This document shows positions 1 through 35,362 of a DNA stretch of 58,519 nt, one piece after another (the stretch's first letter is position 1; each line of letters starts with the position of its first letter). The notes under the pieces are model-generated. The model did no database searches. It was given only the letters and a program-made list of their open reading frames with translations, and was not told the DNA's origin. This DNA is from Candidatus Acidiferrales bacterium (GTDB taxonomy: Bacteria; Patescibacteriota; Microgenomatia; Levybacterales; UBA12049): assembly GCA_035533875.1 (NCBI GenBank), contig DATLSZ010000033.1:1-58519 (forward strand). The letters are read 5' to 3'. The translations under genes and the position numbers were made by a program.

Positions 1-140
<140 letters not shown>

Positions 141-2575: not shown

Positions 2576-4693
2576 TCATTTCGAAGGACGATACGATCTC
2601 CGCACAACCTTCTTCACCATATTCCTCTTTTTGGTAGCCTTCAAACTTGTCCCAGCTGTTTTCTTTTTGGGATCGGCAACCCCGCTTGTTTTGATATCAT
2701 CAAGCTTCCATGCGGCGAAGTTACAATTGGGATAATTGGAACAACCATAAAACTTGCGGCCTTTTCGGGTCTTTTTGATGATGATCTTCCCATTGTCTTT
2801 CGGACAAAGCACATTGGTTTCCTCAACAAACGGTTTGGTAAAATTGCAGTCGGGAAATGTGCTGCATGAAAAAAACTTTCCGAATCTACCGGTCCGGACA
2901 ACGAGGTTACCTTTACCACATTGCGGACAAACCTCATCGGTTTCTTCAACAGGGATCTTTACCCGCTCTGCATTTTCAACTTCTGCAATCGATTTTTCAA
3001 ATGGCTTGTAAAAATCTTTCATCATTGCCTTCCAGTCTTTTTCTCCATTTGCAATTGCATCCAATTCGTATTCCATAGAAGCGGTAAATGGAACATCATC
3101 AATCGTCGCAAAATTCTTGACGAGAAAATCATTAACGGCCATGCCGACAGAAGTCGGAAGAAACTTCCGCTCAACCCGTTCCACATATCCCCTGTCGGTA
3201 ATTGTAGAGATAATTGACGCATACGTTGATGGTCTACCAATTTCTTTTTCTTCAAGGGTTTTGATGAGGGATGCGTCATTATACCGCGGCGGTGGTGTTG
3301 TTTCATGTTCTTCAGAACGCACCTCAACGAATGATAATGACTCACCGGTTGTGAACTTAGGCAGCCGGGTATCCTCAAGTGCCTGTGGTGTTAGTTTTAA
3401 GAATCCATCAAATAACAAAACTGATCCGTTTGCCTTTAACCGGTAGACTTGCTTGGCATCATTGGGGGTATCCACAAGTACCGTCGTTGATTCAACAAGC
3501 GCATCGCTCATCTGTGACGCGATTGCACGCCGCCAGATCATGTCATATAATTTCGCGTACGCATCTCCCAAATCCGCTTTGACCCGATCCGCCATATGGG
3601 CAATTTTTGTAGGACGGATGGCTTCATGCGCTTCCTGCGCGTTTTTTTGTTTGGTGAAATAGGACCGGGGCGCTTGAGGAATATATGTGTCGCCGTATTG
3701 CTTTTGTACATATTCACGGATCTGTACAATCGCTGTTTGGGATATGATCACTGAATCGGTTCTGTGATACGTAATATACCCTTCCTCATATAATTTTTGC
3801 GCAAGACTCATGGTCCGTTTGCCGGGCAAACCAAACCGCTGCGCAGCCTGCTGCTGAAGCGTTGATGTGGTAAATGGTGGATACGGACTCCTTTTTGCCT
3901 GTCTAGTTATGACATCACTAACGATATATGTATGACCACGCAAATCGATGACTATTTTCTCTCCCTTTGCCAGAGTATCAATTGTTGTTTTGGCAAAGGT
4001 ATACTCACCATCATAAAGATTGAGCGTTTTTTTAATTTCTATTTTTTCTTTATTTATTTCAATCAGTTCAAATTCCGTATCTTGTCCTTTATTCGAAAGG
4101 ATAACATGAATGGTAAAGTACGGCTCTTTGCCGAATTTTTCAATCTCACGCTCCCTTTCAACCAAAAGTCTGAGTGCCACACTTTGCACCCGTCCGGCTG
4201 ATAATCCCCGTCTTACTTTCTTCCATAGAACCGGCGACAGCTGATAGCCAACGAGCCGATCCAGAACTCGTCTGGCTGTCTGCGCACTGACCAAATTATG
4301 ATCGACACCACGCGGATGTGATAAGGCGTCTTTTATCGCGCCTTCAGTAATTTCATGAAAGACAATCCGTTTGAATTTATCCTTACCAATCTTCTTATCA
4401 AGCAGCACCTCTTGGATATTTGCCGATATTGCTTCTCCTTCCCGATCAGGGTCGGTTGCAAGAAGAATAGCGTCAGCTCCTTTGGCCGCAGCTCGTAATT
4501 CTGCTATCAGCTTTTTTTTATCTTCGATGATTTCATACTGCGGTGCGAAATCATGTTCGATATCAATTGCCAACTTATTTTTGGGAAGATCAATAATATG
4601 CCCCATGGAAAATTTGATATCATAATCTTTTCCTAAGAACCGTGAGATTGTCTTTGCTTTGGTTGGTGATTCAACAATAACTAAGTTTTTCAT
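2576..4693 (-). CDS. topA: DNA topoisomerase I
   Basis: LVIVESPTKAK, ATDPDREGE, SAGRVQS, GYITYHRTD (catalytic Tyr) and C-terminal Zn ribbons. Confidence 0.98.
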   Translation of the reverse strand: MKNLVIVESPTKAKTISRFLGKDYDIKFSMGHIIDLPKNKLAIDIEHDFAPQYEIIEDKKKLIAELRAAAKGADAILLATDPDREGEAISANIQEVLLDKKIGKDKFKRIVFHEITEGAIKDALSHPRGVDHNLVSAQTARRVLDRLVGYQLSPVLWKKVRRGLSAGRVQSVALRLLVEREREIEKFGKEPYFTIHVILSNKGQDTEFELIEINKEKIEIKKTLNLYDGEYTFAKTTIDTLAKGEKIVIDLRGHTYIVSDVITRQAKRSPYPPFTTSTLQQQAAQRFGLPGKRTMSLAQKLYEEGYITYHRTDSVIISQTAIVQIREYVQKQYGDTYIPQAPRSYFTKQKNAQEAHEAIRPTKIAHMADRVKADLGDAYAKLYDMIWRRAIASQMSDALVESTTVLVDTPNDAKQVYRLKANGSVLLFDGFLKLTPQALEDTRLPKFTTGESLSFVEVRSEEHETTPPPRYNDASLIKTLEEKEIGRPSTYASIISTITDRGYVERVERKFLPTSVGMAVNDFLVKNFATIDDVPFTASMEYELDAIANGEKDWKAMMKDFYKPFEKSIAEVENAERVKIPVEETDEVCPQCGKGNLVVRTGRFGKFFSCSTFPDCNFTKPFVEETNVLCPKDNGKIIIKKTRKGRKFYGCSNYPNCNFAAWKLDDIKTSGVADPKKKTAGTSLKATKKRNMVKKVVRRSYRPSK

Positions 4694-4799
4694 ATGTATT
4701 TCATTCAAATACGTTAACGCGTTAACAAATAATAACTACGATTGTAGTCTACATTATACAAGGTGTGTCAAGGGGGTAGTTATTATAGTATACTTTATG

Positions 4800-5816
4800 T
4801 TATTGTAAGCTACTTCCAACTAATGCAATCATTGCAGTATCAATTTCGTCAGTTCTACCTTGCCATCGCCACCTATTTACATCAATGATACGATTAACAC
4901 CAGTTCTGTCTATTATACAATTATAACCGTTTCCAGCATCATCGGCTGGCAGAAGTGATGTTTCTGTACGGACTTGTTCCAAGAGAGAGGGAAGTGAAGG
5001 ACCACTTGATGACCCATATCCTTCATCAATATTTGCAACAACTAATGAAACTCTCCCATCCGGATTAACAATGAGCGCTTGAGGAATTTCAACAGGTATC
5101 CCATCTCTGTGTAACTCTGTTAACATTGCTGCCTCCCAAAATGTTTGCACCTCGACAAGCGGATCATGTATTGTCACAGGTTTAACTCCTGATCTATTCC
5201 CCTGCCACCAATATTGTCCTCTGGCAAGATCAGCTCTACTAGTAGTAAACCTTCTTTCTCCCTCTTTAACAACTATTTTAGGATTTTCTCCGGTAGATAA
5301 TTCATCGACTGTATAAACAGGTCGCTGATTACCCATTCCTGTTCTTCTTGCCCACCGCGTAACATCTAAACTTTCTTCTGAAACAGTTCTGCTCGGTAGT
5401 AACAATACCTGATGTCCTTCTGCAGTTTCTCTTACCTCTATCGGACCATATGCAGTGATAGCCTCCAAAGGACCACGCACAAAAGGAGAGTCTATCTTAA
5501 TAGATGAGTGTACATGATCTACTCCAACTTCTGCTGTTGCTGCTACAACCAGATCAGTAGTGACCCTTCGAAATCCATCTACTTGGACAGTCTCATCCGC
5601 TCCAGTTCTTGATAATGCTGAATGAAGTCCTCGTGGCATTACAGAACGGCCTACATTACCTCCTGTCCCTGTTCTTACAGCAACTGATGGACGTACTCGT
5701 GTTCTTGCATCAGATTTTTGTCTTTCAGATCCAGACAAGCCTGCAGAACCATGAATACTACTCGCTTCACCTGAAGCGAATGCCGAGCTTGAAATAGCTT
5801 TTGAATGTTCAGCCAT
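4800..5816 (-). CDS. Orphan protein; disordered N-terminus and putative protein-kinase-like C-terminal domain
   Basis: 338-aa ORF with its own intergenic space; motifs KIVVKE, WEAAMLTELHRDGIPVEIP, DDAGNGYN, IIDV. Confidence 0.7.
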   Translation of the reverse strand: MAEHSKAISSSAFASGEASSIHGSAGLSGSERQKSDARTRVRPSVAVRTGTGGNVGRSVMPRGLHSALSRTGADETVQVDGFRRVTTDLVVAATAEVGVDHVHSSIKIDSPFVRGPLEAITAYGPIEVRETAEGHQVLLLPSRTVSEESLDVTRWARRTGMGNQRPVYTVDELSTGENPKIVVKEGERRFTTSRADLARGQYWWQGNRSGVKPVTIHDPLVEVQTFWEAAMLTELHRDGIPVEIPQALIVNPDGRVSLVVANIDEGYGSSSGPSLPSLLEQVRTETSLLPADDAGNGYNCIIDRTGVNRIIDVNRWRWQGRTDEIDTAMIALVGSSLQ

Positions 5817-5873: not shown

Positions 5874-6347
5874 TTAATTCTCTAACGTATTTACTGCAAA
5901 ATGCTGATGAAAAATTTTTTCCAGATATTCTTTATCAACATCATCAAATGAATCTTTCTCGGTACTATCCACATCAAATACGGCAATCAATTCTTTCTTA
6001 CTATTAAAAACTGGCACAACTATCTCAGATTGTGATCTACTGTCACAGGCAATGTGACCGGGGAATTTGTTTACGTCTTTTACGATCTGTGTCTTTTTTT
6101 CTTGTGCCGACGTTCCACAAACGCCCTTACCAAACGCAATATGCAGACAGCCAAGTGTCCCTTGATATGGGCCGACAATAAGCTCTCCGTTGTGAACGAG
6201 ATAAAATCCTGTCCAGAAATAATATGATAAGGTTTCCCGCAAAATACAATTTATCGTCGCCATCTTTACAATGATATGTGACTCACCTTCCAATACAGAA
6301 TCAATTTGCTTGAGTGCAAGTTGATACTTTATTGTTTTATCTTTCAT
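5874..6347 (-). CDS. msrC: GAF-domain free methionine-(R)-sulfoxide reductase
   Basis: FWTGFY, GPYQG, GKGVCG, FPGHIACD and SEIVVP motifs. Start at ATG 6347 behind a GGAGG. Confidence 0.85.
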   Translation of the reverse strand: MKDKTIKYQLALKQIDSVLEGESHIIVKMATINCILRETLSYYFWTGFYLVHNGELIVGPYQGTLGCLHIAFGKGVCGTSAQEKKTQIVKDVNKFPGHIACDSRSQSEIVVPVFNSKKELIAVFDVDSTEKDSFDDVDKEYLEKIFHQHFAVNTLEN

Positions 6348-6353
6348 AACAAC

Positions 6354-6377
6354 AAAAAAACCTCCCGGAAAGGAGGT
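6354..6377 (-). terminator. Riboswitch expression-platform terminator that also contains the SD of msrC
   Basis: ACCTCC-TTTCCG-GGAGGT followed by a T-tract. Confidence 0.75.
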
Positions 6378-6422
6378 CTTAAACAAAAAAATTGTTTTCC
6401 GTTTCTGCTCTCGCAGTTGGGA

Positions 6423-6535
6423 CTAATCCTCCCCCGTAGGGATTGGGTGGAGCACCCATCTCGGAAGCTTCAAACTAACCGAAGGGTTGCTGGATGGGTC
6501 ATCGAACCAATTCTCTCGCCATCTCTCTTGATTAA
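6423..6535 (-). promoter_or_regulatory. SAM-I-like (S-box) riboswitch, copy 1
   Basis: ATCAAGAG...GAGAGAATTGGTTCGATGA...CAGCAACC...GGTGCT; P1 TTAATC/GATTAG; upstream of a Met-related gene. Confidence 0.85.
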
Positions 6536-6548
6536 TTACATTATATCA

Positions 6549-7694
6549 CTAAATAAACTGCTCAGCAAGACGAGTGCCGCGTGTTTGGTTGACCAATTTT
6601 TGATGAGCGATATCCCATGTCCGTGTCCGCAAGCCGCAGTCAGGAGAAGGATTCACTAGTGCCGGATCACCAAGGACATTCACAGCATAAAGAATCCTGT
6701 CGCGGATCAGCTCAGGTGATTCGATAAAATCACTATGGATATCGGTAACTCCCAACCCGATACGTGATGGAATCTTATACTTTCGGAACCATTTCAAAAT
6801 TTCATACCCCGGACGAGTCCCTTCTTTTGTCCCAAGTTCTTTTGAATCACGGTTTGAGAGTTCCAGATCGTACTGGCTACACTGCTCCATCTTCTGAATA
6901 TGCGGAAAAAGGAGCGTATAGTCTGAAAAACAAATATGCACGCTGAATTCCCCTTTCAGACCTTTTACGGATTCATTAAATGACTCAACAAAAAGCGGCA
7001 CTTCAGATGGAATTGTCGTTGCTGCAGGCTCATCAATCTGTATCCACTGCGCGCCATTCTCAATAAGTTTTTGGATATTCGGCCGGAGTAAATTGCGCGC
7101 CACATCAAGGATAAACTGCCTTCGTGCTTTCTCACGGGATGCAAGTGATTTGACACTCCCGAGTTCCTGCACATTCTTTGCGTAATATTCATCAAAAGAC
7201 CACGCGGCGATTGTATACGCGCCGGTAATCGGTATTTTTATTTTCCGGTTGGTCAATTTCTGCAGGTTGAGGAACTCCTCGACATGCCAGGGTTTCTTGA
7301 GTTTTGGCTTGCTGACACAAGCGGCTTTTTGGTAGTATTTATTATCAAATGATCGAACAAGTCCTCGAAAAACAAAGCCGTCCGAAAGATTCACCGCATG
7401 CTGATACATCTCACTTCTGTTCTGCTCGCCGTCATAGACAACATCAACACCCGCATGCTCAATAAGCCGCAGCGCATACCGTGATGACCAGAGCATCACT
7501 TCTTCTTTTTCTTTTTGCGTCAGCGTCTTTTTCTTAAGAAGCGCAAGAAGCGGTTCATGATAGAGCCCGATGCGCTTGCCCCAATAGATCGCGTCATCAA
7601 TATCTCTTTGCGTGAATGGCTTGCCACGACCGACCTTCACCCGCCATTCGGGTTTGGCAAGACTTCCTATTTCATGTGTCAATAAATATGCCAT
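6549..7694 (-). CDS. metE: Cobalamin-independent methionine synthase, catalytic (C-terminal-half) subunit
   Basis: THEIGSL, DGEQNR, RSFDN, WIQIDEPA and Zn ligands HIC...E...PDCGL; only 381 aa. Confidence 0.85.
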   Translation of the reverse strand: MAYLLTHEIGSLAKPEWRVKVGRGKPFTQRDIDDAIYWGKRIGLYHEPLLALLKKKTLTQKEKEEVMLWSSRYALRLIEHAGVDVVYDGEQNRSEMYQHAVNLSDGFVFRGLVRSFDNKYYQKAACVSKPKLKKPWHVEEFLNLQKLTNRKIKIPITGAYTIAAWSFDEYYAKNVQELGSVKSLASREKARRQFILDVARNLLRPNIQKLIENGAQWIQIDEPAATTIPSEVPLFVESFNESVKGLKGEFSVHICFSDYTLLFPHIQKMEQCSQYDLELSNRDSKELGTKEGTRPGYEILKWFRKYKIPSRIGLGVTDIHSDFIESPELIRDRILYAVNVLGDPALVNPSPDCGLRTRTWDIAHQKLVNQTRGTRLAEQFI

Positions 7695-7698
7695 AATT

Positions 7699-8649
7699 TT
7701 ATTTAAAACTCTTTGTAACGTCTCCCAAAAGTCGTACTTTTTCTTTTGCGACAGGTTCCGGCAATAAATCCAGATCAGAATTATTACTCAGATAAATGTC
7801 GGTATCACCGAAATGCTTTTTTGCATTAGTAACAAAACGGGTAATCACCGTTTTTTCTTCAATAAGCGAATTCCTTCCGTCAACAACGCCGGCAATAATA
7901 GCATGTGGCAATTTTTTGGGCAAAGCAGCAAGCGGTGTAAAAACAAAATCGATACCAAGAACGTCCACTGCCTTATTACCGGCAAGTGCTGTTACGAGAT
8001 CAGTCGTATCGCCAAAATACCCATTCACTGCAAGGGCCGCTTTCCCTTTGGCTTTTTTCAATTGCAATAATGCTTTCCCGAGAAGCGCTATCTCTGATTT
8101 CTTAACTTTGTGATACGGAATAAACGGCTCATTCAATTGGATGAACGAAACGTTCTTTGCTGCAAGATAGATAAACAATTCTTCATAAAGTTTCGTTATC
8201 GCAGCCAGTGTTTTTTCAAATGAAGTTGTCGTAGTATCGTCAAGCAACTTTGCAAAAGTAAATGGCGATGCAAGTGTCACTTTCCACCGACCGGAAGTGG
8301 GTTTGATAAAATAGTCATCAAGCTTCTTTACCGATAGCTTCAATTTTCCGGTAATAATTGGCTGTCGGTAAAACGAATTGTTATCAAACCACCTTGTCAG
8401 TGAACCAACTTCCATGCCACTTGTTGCCGTAACAACCGGTCTAAAGATATCCTGCCAGTTAAGTTTACCATCTTCAAGAAATGCAAAGTTTGCCGTTTTC
8501 TGCACTGCCAATAATGCCGCACTATCTTTTGCTTGTTCTTTTTCTAATTCGGAAACCGTAACTCTCTTGCGGTCAAAGTCACGCGTTGTCTGGGCAAGAG
8601 ATCGTGACCGCGGATAGACACCATGGATAAATGCAGAAACTTTAGACAT
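7699..8649 (-). CDS. MetE N-terminal-half-like (folate-binding) subunit of a split MetE
   Basis: GVYPR, TRWFDNNSFYRQP, IQLNEP, AGVVDGRN; lacks Zn ligands; adjacent to the catalytic half; ATG 8649 overlaps the upstream stop. Confidence 0.75.
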   Translation of the reverse strand: MSKVSAFIHGVYPRSRSLAQTTRDFDRKRVTVSELEKEQAKDSAALLAVQKTANFAFLEDGKLNWQDIFRPVVTATSGMEVGSLTRWFDNNSFYRQPIITGKLKLSVKKLDDYFIKPTSGRWKVTLASPFTFAKLLDDTTTTSFEKTLAAITKLYEELFIYLAAKNVSFIQLNEPFIPYHKVKKSEIALLGKALLQLKKAKGKAALAVNGYFGDTTDLVTALAGNKAVDVLGIDFVFTPLAALPKKLPHAIIAGVVDGRNSLIEEKTVITRFVTNAKKHFGDTDIYLSNNSDLDLLPEPVAKEKVRLLGDVTKSFK

Positions 8650-9607
8650 ACAATGCTTGTCTCCTTTCTGCAGAGGCAGATTTTTCATACAGTGTCGTCA
8701 GTCTTTCAAGCAATGAAAAAGATGATTCGTAATTGTGTCTGTTGATATGTTCAACATTCAGACCGATTGGAATTCCGATATGCCCTTTTTCAACGAAACC
8801 CAGAATGTCTTCAAGAATATCCTGGCAGATCTGCAGCGACCGCCAACCGAGTCCGAGCCAACCGGTAGTCAATAATTCTTGTGTTTCATTTGGGATTTCA
8901 ACACCAAGCCACTTCAAAAGCTTGAGATCTGCGGCTGTCGTAAGCGGAGCAAAACTTAGAAAGATCATCTTTGGATCCACCTGTTCTTTCCGGCAGAGGT
9001 CCCAATAATCCTGTAAAAACTGCTTAGTTGACTGCGACTCATAGATAATTTGTGTTGTAAAGAATGTAACACCTGATAAGGATTTTCGCAAGACTCTTTT
9101 TTCTTCATGTAGTCTTGTAGGAATTACTATGCCACCCAAAACATCTCTCGGATATGCTGTACCCAGTGCTTTCGCCGTTTCTATGACGGACAAGCCAGGA
9201 TATGTAACCTTACTTGATTCTCCGCCGACGAGAATAAAATTATGAATACCAAACTTCTGTTGTGTCTCTTCAAACCACTCTTTTTGTTCATCCCATGGAA
9301 GATATACAACTGGCCGGTTAATGATAAGTTCACAATCGGTATATTTCTGTAAATATGTACACACAGTACGAGGTTCTAATTTTTCAATTGCCGCATCCCG
9401 CGTACCGCTTCTTGTTTCTTCCCTGACTTCTGGAATATTCACCGCATCAACCGGAAAGTGTTTGATCGTTGCCGAGAAGAGTGAAAAAGAACTATGCAGA
9501 TCTTCTTCGGGCAATGATTTCGGTAACGGTAGCAGTTCATACAAAATAGTCTTTTCGCCCCGTTCTATTTTCTGTTTTAACGTTAATTGTTTACTCTTTT
9601 TTTTCAT
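8642..9607 (-). CDS. metF: Methylenetetrahydrofolate reductase-like FAD oxidoreductase
   Basis: YELLP, DAVNIPE, LVGGE and FFTTQIIY resemble MTHFR barrel motifs; first gene of a SAM-riboswitch operon. Confidence 0.7.
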   Translation of the reverse strand: MKKKSKQLTLKQKIERGEKTILYELLPLPKSLPEEDLHSSFSLFSATIKHFPVDAVNIPEVREETRSGTRDAAIEKLEPRTVCTYLQKYTDCELIINRPVVYLPWDEQKEWFEETQQKFGIHNFILVGGESSKVTYPGLSVIETAKALGTAYPRDVLGGIVIPTRLHEEKRVLRKSLSGVTFFTTQIIYESQSTKQFLQDYWDLCRKEQVDPKMIFLSFAPLTTAADLKLLKWLGVEIPNETQELLTTGWLGLGWRSLQICQDILEDILGFVEKGHIGIPIGLNVEHINRHNYESSFSLLERLTTLYEKSASAERRQALYV

Positions 9608-9631
9608 AAAAAAACCTCCCTGGAAGGAGGT
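9608..9631 (-). terminator. Riboswitch terminator whose 3' arm is the SD of metF
   Basis: ACCTCC-TTCCAG-GGAGG-TTTTTTT-ATG. Confidence 0.75.
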
Positions 9632-9666
9632 TCAGTAATGTATTTCCATCTGCCAACTGGCAATGG

Positions 9667-9782
9667 CTAATCCTCCCCCGTAGGGATTGGGTGGAGCACC
9701 CATCTCGGAAGTTTCAAACTAACCGAAGGGTTGCTGGATGGGTCATCGGAGCCAATTCTCCATTCGCCATCACTCTTGATTA
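9667..9782 (-). promoter_or_regulatory. SAM-I-like (S-box) riboswitch, copy 2
   Basis: Same conserved core as copy 1; 9667-9748 matches 6423-6504 at 81 of 82 nt. Confidence 0.87.
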
Positions 9783-9799
9783 TTTTTAATAATACTCCT

Positions 9800-10900
9800 C
9801 TATTCTTTTGCTGTCAAGCCGAAAAAACCAGCATCCAAACTCTTCACAATTCCTTTCATCTCCATCAGTGACAACAATGTCCCCAGTTTGGCGGAATCCA
9901 AACCCGACTTCTTCACTATCTCGTCAAAATGTAATCTCTGATTCTGTAATAAATCAACAACCTTCGTTTCTTCCTTTGTTAAGCCTTTGATACTCCTAAT
10001 ACCTTTAATACCCTTGATATTGTAACTATTAATTCTTAATTCGCTGATAATATCTCCGGCTGTCGTTACCATTTTCGCACCGTTAGCAATGAGCGCAATC
10101 GGTCCTCTTGAAACTGATGAAGTGATCGGTCCTGGCACTGCAAAAACTTTTCGATTGTTATCAAATCCATCTTTTGCCGTAATCAAGCTTCCGCTATCCT
10201 GTGCCCCTTCGGTAACCAATACTCCGAGAGACAATCCAGCGATTATCCTGTTTCGTGCGGGAAAAGAGCCTTTCATAGGCATCATTCCAAGTGGCGTTTC
10301 AGAGACAATAGCACCTCCACTTTCCAAAATCTGATTGTACAAACTTGTATTTTCCTGCGGAGTACACACATCAACACCGCTTCCGAGAACTGCGATAGTC
10401 TTGCCTCCTGCTGAAATCGTCGCCCGATGTGCGCATGCGTCCACTCCTATCGCGAGTCCCGACACGATAACACAACCCGCTTGAACTAAGTCAGAAACGA
10501 GTAGTCCTGTTACCTCCTTCCCATAATCTGTAATCTTTCTTGTTCCGACAACAGAAACTAAGTTGTCATTTTCGTTAAATATATATGTTCCCTTTTTATA
10601 CAATACAACTGGTGGTTTTTTGATCTTTTTTAAAAGAGTTGGATAATCGACGTCTTGTAACGTAAAAAAGGTAACCTGTAGTCGATGTAATCGCTCTTCA
10701 TACTCCTCCAAAACAAACTTCTTTTTAAAATTCTCTACATCCTGGGCGAGCTTTTCTCCAATCCCCGACTCCTTGAGTTCACCCAGAGACGCATCCCACG
10801 CACGCTTTGCCGATCCGAAATATCGCAGTAACAGCTGAAACCGCACCGGCCCGATACCATTACATACAGACAACGCCAACCAATATCTTCGCTCATCCAT
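9800..10900 (-). CDS. dprA: DNA-processing protein A
   Basis: VSVVGTR, IVSGLAIGVD, SFPARNRIIAGLS, SGSLITA and C-terminal winged helix. Confidence 0.96.
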   Translation of the reverse strand: MDERRYWLALSVCNGIGPVRFQLLLRYFGSAKRAWDASLGELKESGIGEKLAQDVENFKKKFVLEEYEERLHRLQVTFFTLQDVDYPTLLKKIKKPPVVLYKKGTYIFNENDNLVSVVGTRKITDYGKEVTGLLVSDLVQAGCVIVSGLAIGVDACAHRATISAGGKTIAVLGSGVDVCTPQENTSLYNQILESGGAIVSETPLGMMPMKGSFPARNRIIAGLSLGVLVTEGAQDSGSLITAKDGFDNNRKVFAVPGPITSSVSRGPIALIANGAKMVTTAGDIISELRINSYNIKGIKGIRSIKGLTKEETKVVDLLQNQRLHFDEIVKKSGLDSAKLGTLLSLMEMKGIVKSLDAGFFGLTAKE

Positions 10901-35284: not shown

Positions 35285-35292
35285 TTACCTAC

Positions 35293-35340
35293 AAGCGATG
35301 AAGTTCGCTTCTAAATGCCTCAAAAGCTAATGACTTCTAC
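35293..35340 (+). promoter_or_regulatory. Fluoride (crcB) riboswitch
   Basis: AAGCGATGAAGTTCGCTT-CTAAATGC...GCTAATGACTTCTAC matches the crcB motif GATG..GTTC.CC...GCT.ATGAC..CTAC. Confidence 0.82.
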
Positions 35341-35362
35341 CATACGTGGTAGGAGTTTTTTT
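35333..35362 (+). terminator. Riboswitch terminator overlapping the aptamer 3' end
   Basis: ACTTCTACCA-TACG-TGGTAGGAGT followed by a T-tract. Confidence 0.78.

Follow-up and report, generated by a model that had tools for sequence, protein, structure and literature searches.

A putative SAM-controlled methionine-regeneration operon pairing a split MetE with an MTHFR-like gene in a Patescibacteria genome

The cobalamin-independent methionine synthase MetE is, in its canonical form, a single chain of ~750 amino acids (aa) that contains both barrels. A split form was proposed by Price, Deutschbauer and Arkin in 2021, with P. furiosus PF1268 and PF1269 as the prototype, and was defined by two adjacent components of at most 400 aa, one carrying Meth_synt_2 and the other Meth_synt_1, along with a score of at least 200 bits between the catalytic component and PF1269 by phmmer (PMC7857596). 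Methylenetetrahydrofolate reductases (MTHFRs), which supply the methyl donor 5-methyl-tetrahydrofolate (5-methyl-THF), include flavin-independent mycobacterial enzymes, and mutagenesis of one of these, the Mfr of M. hassiacum (hMfr), established four pterin-site positions: E9 (A), L221 (B), Q177 (C), and E55/E56 (D) (PMC11094777). Here we describe a three-gene operon that combines these two themes on contig DATLSZ010000033.1, a 58,519-nucleotide (nt) stretch hereafter called “the window”, in which the operon occupies positions 9607-6549 of the minus strand. We interpret it as an S-adenosylmethionine (SAM)-repressed methionine-regeneration operon encoding a two-protein MetE and a methylene-folate reductase, a reading to which we assign a probability of slightly above 0.7.

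The two MetE halves and their coupling to an MTHFR-fold gene

Three co-directional open reading frames (ORFs) are listed for this part of the window, at 8642-9607, 7699-8688, and 6549-7694, all on the minus strand. Gene 1 (8642..9607, minus strand; P0001) encodes a 321-aa protein of the MTHFR fold which, based on homology, fold, and residue alignment, belongs to a clade typified by PDB entry 3IJD and is proposed to be a flavin-independent methylene-THF reductase. Gene 2 (7699..8649, minus strand) encodes a protein corresponding to the MetE N-terminal domain and is a predicted non-catalytic subunit (PF08267, start analysis, residue alignment), while gene 3 (6549..7694, minus strand; P0003; 381 aa) encodes the predicted MetE catalytic subunit, with zinc- and homocysteine-binding residues (PF01717, residue alignment, tree). 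The listed ORF of gene 2 begins at 8688; because alignments of its relatives begin at residue 13-14 of this longer ORF, and because a GAAAGGAG Shine-Dalgarno sequence is found 10 nt upstream of an ATG at 8649, the true start is almost certainly that ATG, giving a product of 316 aa. This start codon overlaps the stop of gene 1 as ATGTCTAA, and 4 nt separate the stop of gene 2 from the ATG of gene 3, an arrangement that agrees with the original prediction, made from the DNA letters and their ORFs, that the MetE halves are coupled to an MTHFR-like gene.

The product of gene 2 (316-329 aa) passes the Meth_synt_1 model (PF08267, 79.1 bits vs a cut-off of 27) and has no PF01717 match, and the product of gene 3 passes Meth_synt_2 (PF01717, 107.5 bits vs a cut-off of 21). 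In domain content, length, and adjacency, genes 2 and 3 are what Price et al. described as a split MetE. They do not form a canonical MetE, since both barrels are not carried by one ~750-aa chain and the two genes score 97.5 and 76.9 bits on the full-length model TIGR01371, far below its cut-off of 929.95. We aligned 22 split sequences (gene 3 and 21 others) with 7 full-length MetE sequences, which placed the zinc ligands of gene 3 at H253, C255, E278, and C353, and its homocysteine-binding residues at S11, E90, and D221. H253, C255, S11, E90, and D221 are invariant across all 22 split and 7 full-length sequences, the E278 position is E in 19 of the 22 split sequences, and the C353 position is C in 20 of them. 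The corresponding residues of gene 2 are N, Y, D, and S at the zinc positions and V, K, and N at the homocysteine positions. ORFs, Pfam matches, and residues thereby reproduce in every detail the earlier description of two MetE halves encoded by separate genes, one of 316 aa without zinc ligands and one of 381 aa with them. This distribution of residues supports a model in which catalysis is confined to the C-terminal half (gene 3), with separate, adjacent, and coupled halves that are predicted to form a complex.

A folate-dependent enzyme, as had been proposed, is further supported over one of the Mes type, i.e., the core methionine synthases MesA, MesC, and MesD, by several sequence features. 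The Trp of the TGxxTxxxWSF motif, which presumably stacks on the pterin, is kept in gene 3, shared with full-length MetE, and invariant in the aligned set. Among NCBIfam models, gene 3 scores 249 bits on NF003317 (cut-off 406) and 251 bits on NF002272 (cut-off 399), in both cases below cut-off; these two models, named for an archaeal short “methionine synthase”, are presumably of the split-MetE type. Scores on other models were 77 bits for NF002119 (cut-off 258), 70 bits for NF006589, and 17 bits for NF004712, which we assume to represent the MesA, MesD, and MesC types, respectively. MesA and MesC have Gln at the position of E. coli E484 (Price 2021, PMC7857596). Gene 3 has Glu90 at this position and an N-domain gene adjoins it, which sets it apart from MesA and MesC on both counts, and N-domain and MTHFR-fold partners are constant.

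An uncharacterised reductase-like family beside methionine synthases

On homology and predicted structure, gene 1 is a member of an uncharacterised 3IJD-like clade, nearest to the flavin-independent mycobacterial reductases. The gene 1 family, which comprises ~500 clusters at 50% identity, is covered by no Pfam or NCBIfam model: gene 1 itself (P0001) has no match at E <= 0.01 to PF02219, the model of flavin adenine dinucleotide (FAD)-dependent MTHFR/MetF, and a sub-threshold score of 17.4 bits on PF19345 (MTHFR_2, cut-off 27), and weak matches to PF02219 and PF19345 were obtained for 12 and 10 of 20 family members, respectively (best PF02219 match, 1.1e-09). Similarity to 3IJD is clear (E 3.6e-17 with the single sequence, 1.7e-43 with a family profile), and the family profile also matches the mycobacterial proteins MSMEG_6649 (2.1e-08) and hMfr (2.9e-06). 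An AlphaFold2 model of gene 1 forms a (beta-alpha)8 TIM barrel with a mean pLDDT of 90, for which Foldseek ranked 3IJD first, followed by FAD-independent MTHFRs and then by FAD-dependent MetF enzymes. The TM-score to 3IJD is 0.77 when normalised to the gene 1 model and 0.86 when normalised to 3IJD, compared with 0.70-0.72 for the FAD-independent structures 7WMX, 7WMZ, 8BGR, and 8QPJ (E ~1e-16) and 0.61-0.65 for FAD-dependent MetF enzymes (E 1e-11 to 1e-13).

In a profile alignment to 8BGR/7WMW, gene 1 residues E24, L234, Q186, and E63/E64 fall on hMfr positions A, B, C, and D, respectively. Across 135 family representatives (50% clustering), Q186 is conserved in 100%, L234 in 93%, and E24 in 81%, with G or T at the E24 position in ~15%, 3IJD among them. 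This pattern suggests that methylene-THF reduction by gene 1 is probably flavin-free. Members of the Gly/Thr-24 subgroup, including 3IJD, may be non-catalytic or act differently.

We then considered the genomic neighbours of the family, using 80 loci from species-representative genomes together with the window, i.e., 81 loci (labelled L plus a number where one has to be named) and 82 gene-1 copies, one locus having two. A methionine synthase, whether MetH, full-length MetE, or split MetE, was identified in the fetched flank of 72 of the 82 copies, usually adjacent. MetH was present in the flank of 40 copies, typically in the order MetH-gene 1-MetK-AhcY and in genomes labelled Marinimicrobia and marine group II/III archaea. 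Such MetH-gene 1-MetK-AhcY clusters (L024:1465-8658, L029, L039, and ~37 more loci) encode a complete activated-methyl cycle in which the 3IJD-like protein stands where an MTHFR is expected. Full-length MetE followed by gene 1 was found by ORF order for 7 copies, labelled Legionella, Berkiellales, other Pseudomonadota, and one Methanobacteriota; it lies directly before gene 1 in Legionella erythra (L031), L. rubrilucens (L036), L015, L026, L027, and L034. The Legionella-type upstream gene was considered as a “core MetE” after a tblastn match of 280 residues, a candidate rejected once the ORFs proved to be full-length MetE of 751-775 aa.

The remaining partner type, split MetE, accompanies 25 of the 82 copies, spread over at least 6 phylum labels, and these copies carry the labels Patescibacteria, Acetothermia/Bipolaricaulota, Fraserbacteria, Acidobacteria, Thermoplasmatota, a Halobacteriales-labelled metagenome-assembled genome (MAG), Aenigmatarchaeota, and two unlabelled bacteria. 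One of the 25, with a Legionella label (L025), is probably a full-length MetE cut at a contig end. The statement in the original prediction that split forms are described mainly from archaea understates their frequency in uncultured bacteria. The gene 1 tree divides largely by partner type. That gene 1 stands alike beside MetH, full-length MetE, and split MetE argues against a role as a MetE-specific adaptor.

A PF02219 search of 22 genomes that carry gene 1 detected canonical MetF in none, including two Legionella isolates, and the window's own genome gave no match. The labels of these carriers include Marinimicrobia (Fidelibacterota), marine group II/III archaea, other Thermoplasmatota, two Legionella species, Acetothermia (Bipolaricaulota), Fraserbacteria, one Aenigmatarchaeota archaeon, and Patescibacteria. 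PF02219 signals in the 22 genomes reached only 18-40 bits, and those whose coordinates were compared with the fetched loci correspond to gene 1 homologs. The lack of canonical MetF in these genomes and the methionine synthase neighbours are the pattern expected if the gene 1 family is their MTHFR. In our judgement, the odds lean slightly towards a broader proposal, in which this family would be a third class of methylene-THF reductase, most likely flavin-free, acting as the sole MTHFR of the 22 carrier genomes and serving MetH, MetE, and split MetE, and in which it would have reached Patescibacteria with split MetE in a single mobile block under riboswitch control, making the methyl cycle of the cell independent of external methionine. 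This family is the most promising lead to come out of the locus.

Control elements, insertion site, and homocysteine supply

The operon is preceded by control elements that the original prediction had missed. A sigma-70-type promoter, TTGACA-17-TATTAT (9789..9817, minus strand; 11 of 12 consensus matches), overlaps the 3' end of dprA and is followed by a SAM-I-type aptamer in the operon leader (9665..9785, minus strand; RF00162, 24.0 bits) and by an intrinsic terminator (9612..9633, minus strand) with a 9-bp stem and a T run, of which the 3' arm GGGAGG doubles as the Shine-Dalgarno sequence of gene 1. Downstream of gene 3, a second SAM-I-type aptamer (6421..6537, minus strand; RF00162, 42.3 bits, E 1.6e-07), 99% identical to the first over 82 nt, and a second intrinsic terminator (6357..6380, minus strand; 10-bp stem) precede a gene for a 157-aa GAF-type free methionine-(R)-sulfoxide reductase (fRMsr; 5874..6347, minus strand), assigned from full-length PDB matches (3KSF, 9.4e-43; 3MMH, 4.5e-31; YebR 1VHM, 6.9e-31). 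The listed fRMsr start, TTG 6386, falls inside this second terminator, and the real start is ATG 6347.

At the Rfam gathering threshold no riboswitch was detected in the operon region; the SAM-I type was revealed by a permissive scan and by the relatives, whose RF00162 matches at the same place upstream of gene 1 reach 55.2, 50.8, and 47.2 bits, with two more at 41-41.5. A four-helix SAM-I fold is common to eight sequences, and its P1-P4 consensus comprises 24 pairs, 7 of which show compensatory changes. This four-helix junction with covariation, followed by an expression platform, identifies the element as SAM-I-like, and a response to SAM is predicted. That two methionine-supply units, the operon and fRMsr, share one SAM signal is strong, if circumstantial, evidence for a role of the operon in supplying methionine and SAM. 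A search of the literature on SAM riboswitches in the candidate phyla radiation (CPR) returned nothing relevant.

The window belongs to an assembly of 1.28 Mb in 39 contigs, estimated to be 75% complete, and genomes of sampled phylum-mates range from 0.8 to 1.1 Mb. Named relatives of its TopA are mostly Levybacteria or “Patescibacteria group” (69-79% identity), along with a few high-identity matches labelled otherwise (Sulfotelmatobacter, 81%; Methylomirabilota, 72%; Saccharimonadales, 68%). TopA relatives and small genome size both support the suggestion, already made from the window, of a CPR genome. Within this phylum the operon is rare: a search for gene 3 in 400 evenly sampled Patescibacteria genomes returned two distant matches only (38% and 35% identity), no close homolog, and no match at all in sampled genomes of the same family or class. 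The operon was recovered in the same order in ~10 species-level genomes, with gene 3 identities of 65-84%, and an N-domain gene and an MTHFR-fold gene adjoin gene 3 in all 11 Patescibacteria copies (10 loci and the window). Four loci with a Patescibacteria-type operon (L003, L004, L009, and L010) come from MAGs of 0.9-1.3 Mb labelled “uncultured Gammaproteobacteria”. These labels are probably wrong; in L010, the only one of the four with topA in the locus, topA is 64% identical to that of the window. The literature on methionine synthase in Patescibacteria likewise yielded nothing relevant.

Both the gene 3 and the gene 1 trees group the Patescibacteria copies into one clade (SH-aLRT 98 and 100, respectively), with an unclassified bacterium (L040) as sister, and the gene 3 tree places Patescibacteria and L040 next to Bipolaricaulota/Fraserbacteria, followed by Thermoplasmatota copies. 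In the window, the operon lies between dprA upstream (9800..10900, minus strand; domain models, synteny) and topA downstream (2576..4708, minus strand; domain models, synteny, relatives). Among 29 loci of the same class that were retrieved with dprA, these two genes are direct neighbours in 16, with a gap of at most 202 nt, and none showed the operon within its retrieved stretch. The corresponding gap in the window, 5.1 kb, is exactly accounted for by the operon, the unit encoding fRMsr, and a single 338-aa orphan (4800-5816) located between fRMsr and topA. Three operon-bearing relatives were checked for these flanks, of which L002 keeps dprA, L010 topA, and L011 both. Based on its rarity, its single clade in the trees, and dprA-topA adjacency elsewhere, the best reading is a single old insertion into one small Levybacteria/Shapirobacteria-related sublineage. 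An earlier suggestion of horizontal acquisition thus gains support from phylum rarity, gene trees, and the insertion at the dprA-topA junction. Composition was rejected as a sign of transfer, operon GC content (41-44%) being like that of the rest of the window.

As the original prediction noted, no gene for a homocysteine source was found in the window. The genome encodes MetK, GlyA, and FolD, and a contig designated C6 carries a CBS/CysK-like gene paired with a cystathionine gamma-synthase/lyase-like gene, with no riboswitch before the pair. MetH was not found in this 75%-complete genome by tblastn with one Marinimicrobia-type MetH as sole query. Of the 10 operon-bearing relatives, 9 have AhcY, the S-adenosylhomocysteine (SAH) hydrolase, which adjoins the operon in L006, and 6 have homoserine dehydrogenase. 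In a 0.9-Mb relative (L003:604-4758), an aspartokinase-homoserine dehydrogenase fusion, aspartate-semialdehyde dehydrogenase (asd), and a 212-aa unknown protein are encoded just upstream of the riboswitch and operon, with a divergent Cys/Met pyridoxal phosphate (PLP) enzyme downstream; this arrangement may represent de novo methionine synthesis in a Patescibacterium. Another relative has a SAM-I riboswitch (L011:8092-8221, 44.6 bits) before a Cys/Met PLP-enzyme gene directly after the operon, and this enzyme has a 46%-identical homolog behind the CBS/CysK-like gene of contig C6. Overall, the operon most likely serves here to recycle homocysteine derived from SAH, and de novo synthesis is possible in some relatives.

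Two further features of the window lie outside these units: the 5' end of a bacterial 16S rRNA gene (1-140, minus strand), which runs off the window start, and a fluoride riboswitch (35285-35346, plus strand; RF01734, 44.1 bits, above the gathering score).

Proposed function, alternatives, and known systems

In the mechanism that we propose, transcription would start at the strong promoter at 9817-9789 and proceed into the SAM-I-type riboswitch. When SAM is plentiful, the aptamer would let the terminator at 9633-9612 form, and the operon would be off because transcription terminates and because the same hairpin buries the gene 1 ribosome-binding site; when SAM is scarce, the three coupled genes would be made. 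Gene 1 would then convert 5,10-methylene-THF, supplied through GlyA (serine hydroxymethyltransferase) and FolD encoded elsewhere, into 5-methyl-THF, probably as mycobacterial Mfr does, with hydride passing directly from NAD(P)H and no flavin involved. The products of genes 2 and 3 would form a two-subunit cobalamin-independent methionine synthase, in which gene 3 would activate homocysteine on zinc and take the methyl group from 5-methyl-THF, and gene 2 would do what the N-domain does in MetE, contributing structure and binding the folate tail. Methionine made in this way would feed MetK, and the second riboswitch copy would put fRMsr under the same SAM signal. Homocysteine would most likely derive from SAH via SAH hydrolase, as in the relatives. 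Our direct observations cover the genes present and their residues, the fold, the homology of the riboswitches, the synteny, and the distribution; from these we infer what the enzymes do, that the MetE halves form a complex, which reductant is used, in which direction SAM regulates the operon, and where homocysteine comes from.

Several observations weigh against this interpretation. Gene 1 falls below the cut-offs of both Pfam MTHFR models, the catalytic Glu24 is replaced by Gly in 3IJD, its nearest relative of known structure, and both window aptamers, at 42.3 and 24.0 bits, score under the RF00162 gathering score of 44.4. Split MetE itself still has the status “predicted” in GapMind 2026 (PMC13759103). 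Finally, AhcY, LuxS, a Pfs-type nucleosidase, homoserine dehydrogenase, and MetX were not found in the window's genome, which is only 75% complete, and these failed searches are therefore not evidence of absence.

Three other explanations can be set against it. Gene 1 might be no reductase at all and instead serve the split MetE as a methyl-folate-binding, carrier, or regulatory subunit, with 5-methyl-THF imported or otherwise made. The two 5-methyl-THF molecules held by 3IJD in the absence of the catalytic Glu, and the G or T found at that position in ~15% of family representatives, would fit such a role. It is nonetheless rather unlikely, as the Glu is retained in the window protein and in 81% of the family, together with the other three Mfr catalytic positions, homologs are equally often located beside MetH, which binds pterin through a domain of its own and requires no adaptor, and no other MTHFR was detected in the 22 genomes checked. 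We regard it as very improbable that gene 3 is instead a Mes-type core methionine synthase using a non-folate donor (a corrinoid protein or other), with unrelated roles for the N-half and gene 1. Gene 3 is of core size, at 381 aa, MesA is ~38% identical to split-MetE catalytic subunits (Price et al., PMC7857596), and folate use by any split MetE is still a prediction; yet the operon contains no corrinoid protein gene, N-domain and MTHFR-fold genes adjoin gene 3 in 11 of 11 Patescibacteria copies and in several other phyla, and the residue at the E484 position is Glu and not Gln (PMC7857596). The invariant TGxxTxxxWSF Trp, common with full-length MetE, speaks against it as well, as do scores of 77, 70, and 17 bits on the presumed, unverified Mes-type models vs 249-251 on those presumed to be of the split-MetE type.

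The third explanation retains the same chemistry but has the operon complete a de novo methionine pathway, in which homocysteine is built from aspartate or cysteine and not recycled from SAH. This is possible but doubtful. Its support in relatives consists of the aspartokinase-homoserine dehydrogenase fusion and asd directly upstream and the Cys/Met PLP enzyme downstream in L003, the SAM riboswitch before the Cys/Met PLP enzyme that adjoins the operon in L011, and homoserine dehydrogenase in 6 of 10 genomes; within the window's genome, it is the CBS/CysK-like and cystathionine gamma-synthase/lyase-like pair of contig C6. Conversely, homoserine dehydrogenase and MetX were not found in that 75%-complete genome, no riboswitch precedes the C6 pair, and AhcY is the commoner partner, in 9 of 10 relatives. 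The two roles are compatible with each other and not exclusive.

Models usually treat CPR/Patescibacteria as incapable of amino-acid synthesis. If the SAM-repressed regeneration operon functions as proposed, this lineage would have gained a regulated means of regenerating methionine and SAM from homocysteine, which would suggest that metabolic dependence varies even within one class. Beyond this lineage, the locus provides a testable function for a protein family whose structure (3IJD) has been solved but not explained, a family that is apparently the sole MTHFR in several abundant uncultured groups, within the genomes checked. If gene 1 is indeed an MTHFR, automated pathway tools that seek MetF would cease reporting a false gap. 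The locus also adds a split MetE from a bacterium, under a clear regulatory signal, on which the split enzyme could be tested biochemically for the first time.

Taken together, the locus is a real but rare example of the known split-MetE kind, particular in its CPR host, its clear insertion, its twin riboswitches, and its uncharacterised Mfr-like clade. Like the split MetE of Price 2021, it consists of an adjacent gene pair, neither product exceeding 400 aa, one with Meth_synt_1 only and one with Meth_synt_2 and the full zinc and homocysteine set, and a methyl-pterin as predicted methyl donor. Unlike that system, which was described mainly in Halobacteria, Thermoprotei, and one bacterium (Sulfobacillus) (PMC7857596), it resides in Patescibacteria, an Mfr-like reductase gene and a SAM-I riboswitch precede the pair, and gene 3 reaches ~250 bits on the two archaeal NCBIfam models, under their curated cut-offs of 399 and 406. 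Gene 1 resembles Mfr (MSMEG_6649/MSMEG_6596, Rv2172c, and hMfr; PDB 7WMW and 8BGR; PMC11094777) in fold, in the A-D positions (Glu, Leu, Gln, and the IPxxxEE acid), and in a role in the methionine cycle, but is only 16-19% identical to it, scores 17 bits vs 27 on PF19345, and falls in a separate clade. The nearest relative of gene 1 with a known structure, 3IJD (Cthe_2304 from Clostridium thermocellum), a structural-genomics entry on which our literature search returned nothing relevant, shows the fold binding methyl-folate, having been crystallised with two 5-methyl-THF molecules according to the entry title, and differs in having Gly where the window protein has Glu24. Finally, as in the S-box (SAM-I) regulon of Bacillota, a SAM-I aptamer followed by a terminator stands before methionine genes, and several units in one genome share one signal; here, unlike in that regulon, the host is a member of the Patescibacteria, the aptamers lie under the Rfam threshold, the 3' arm of the terminator is itself the Shine-Dalgarno sequence, and one of the units drives fRMsr.

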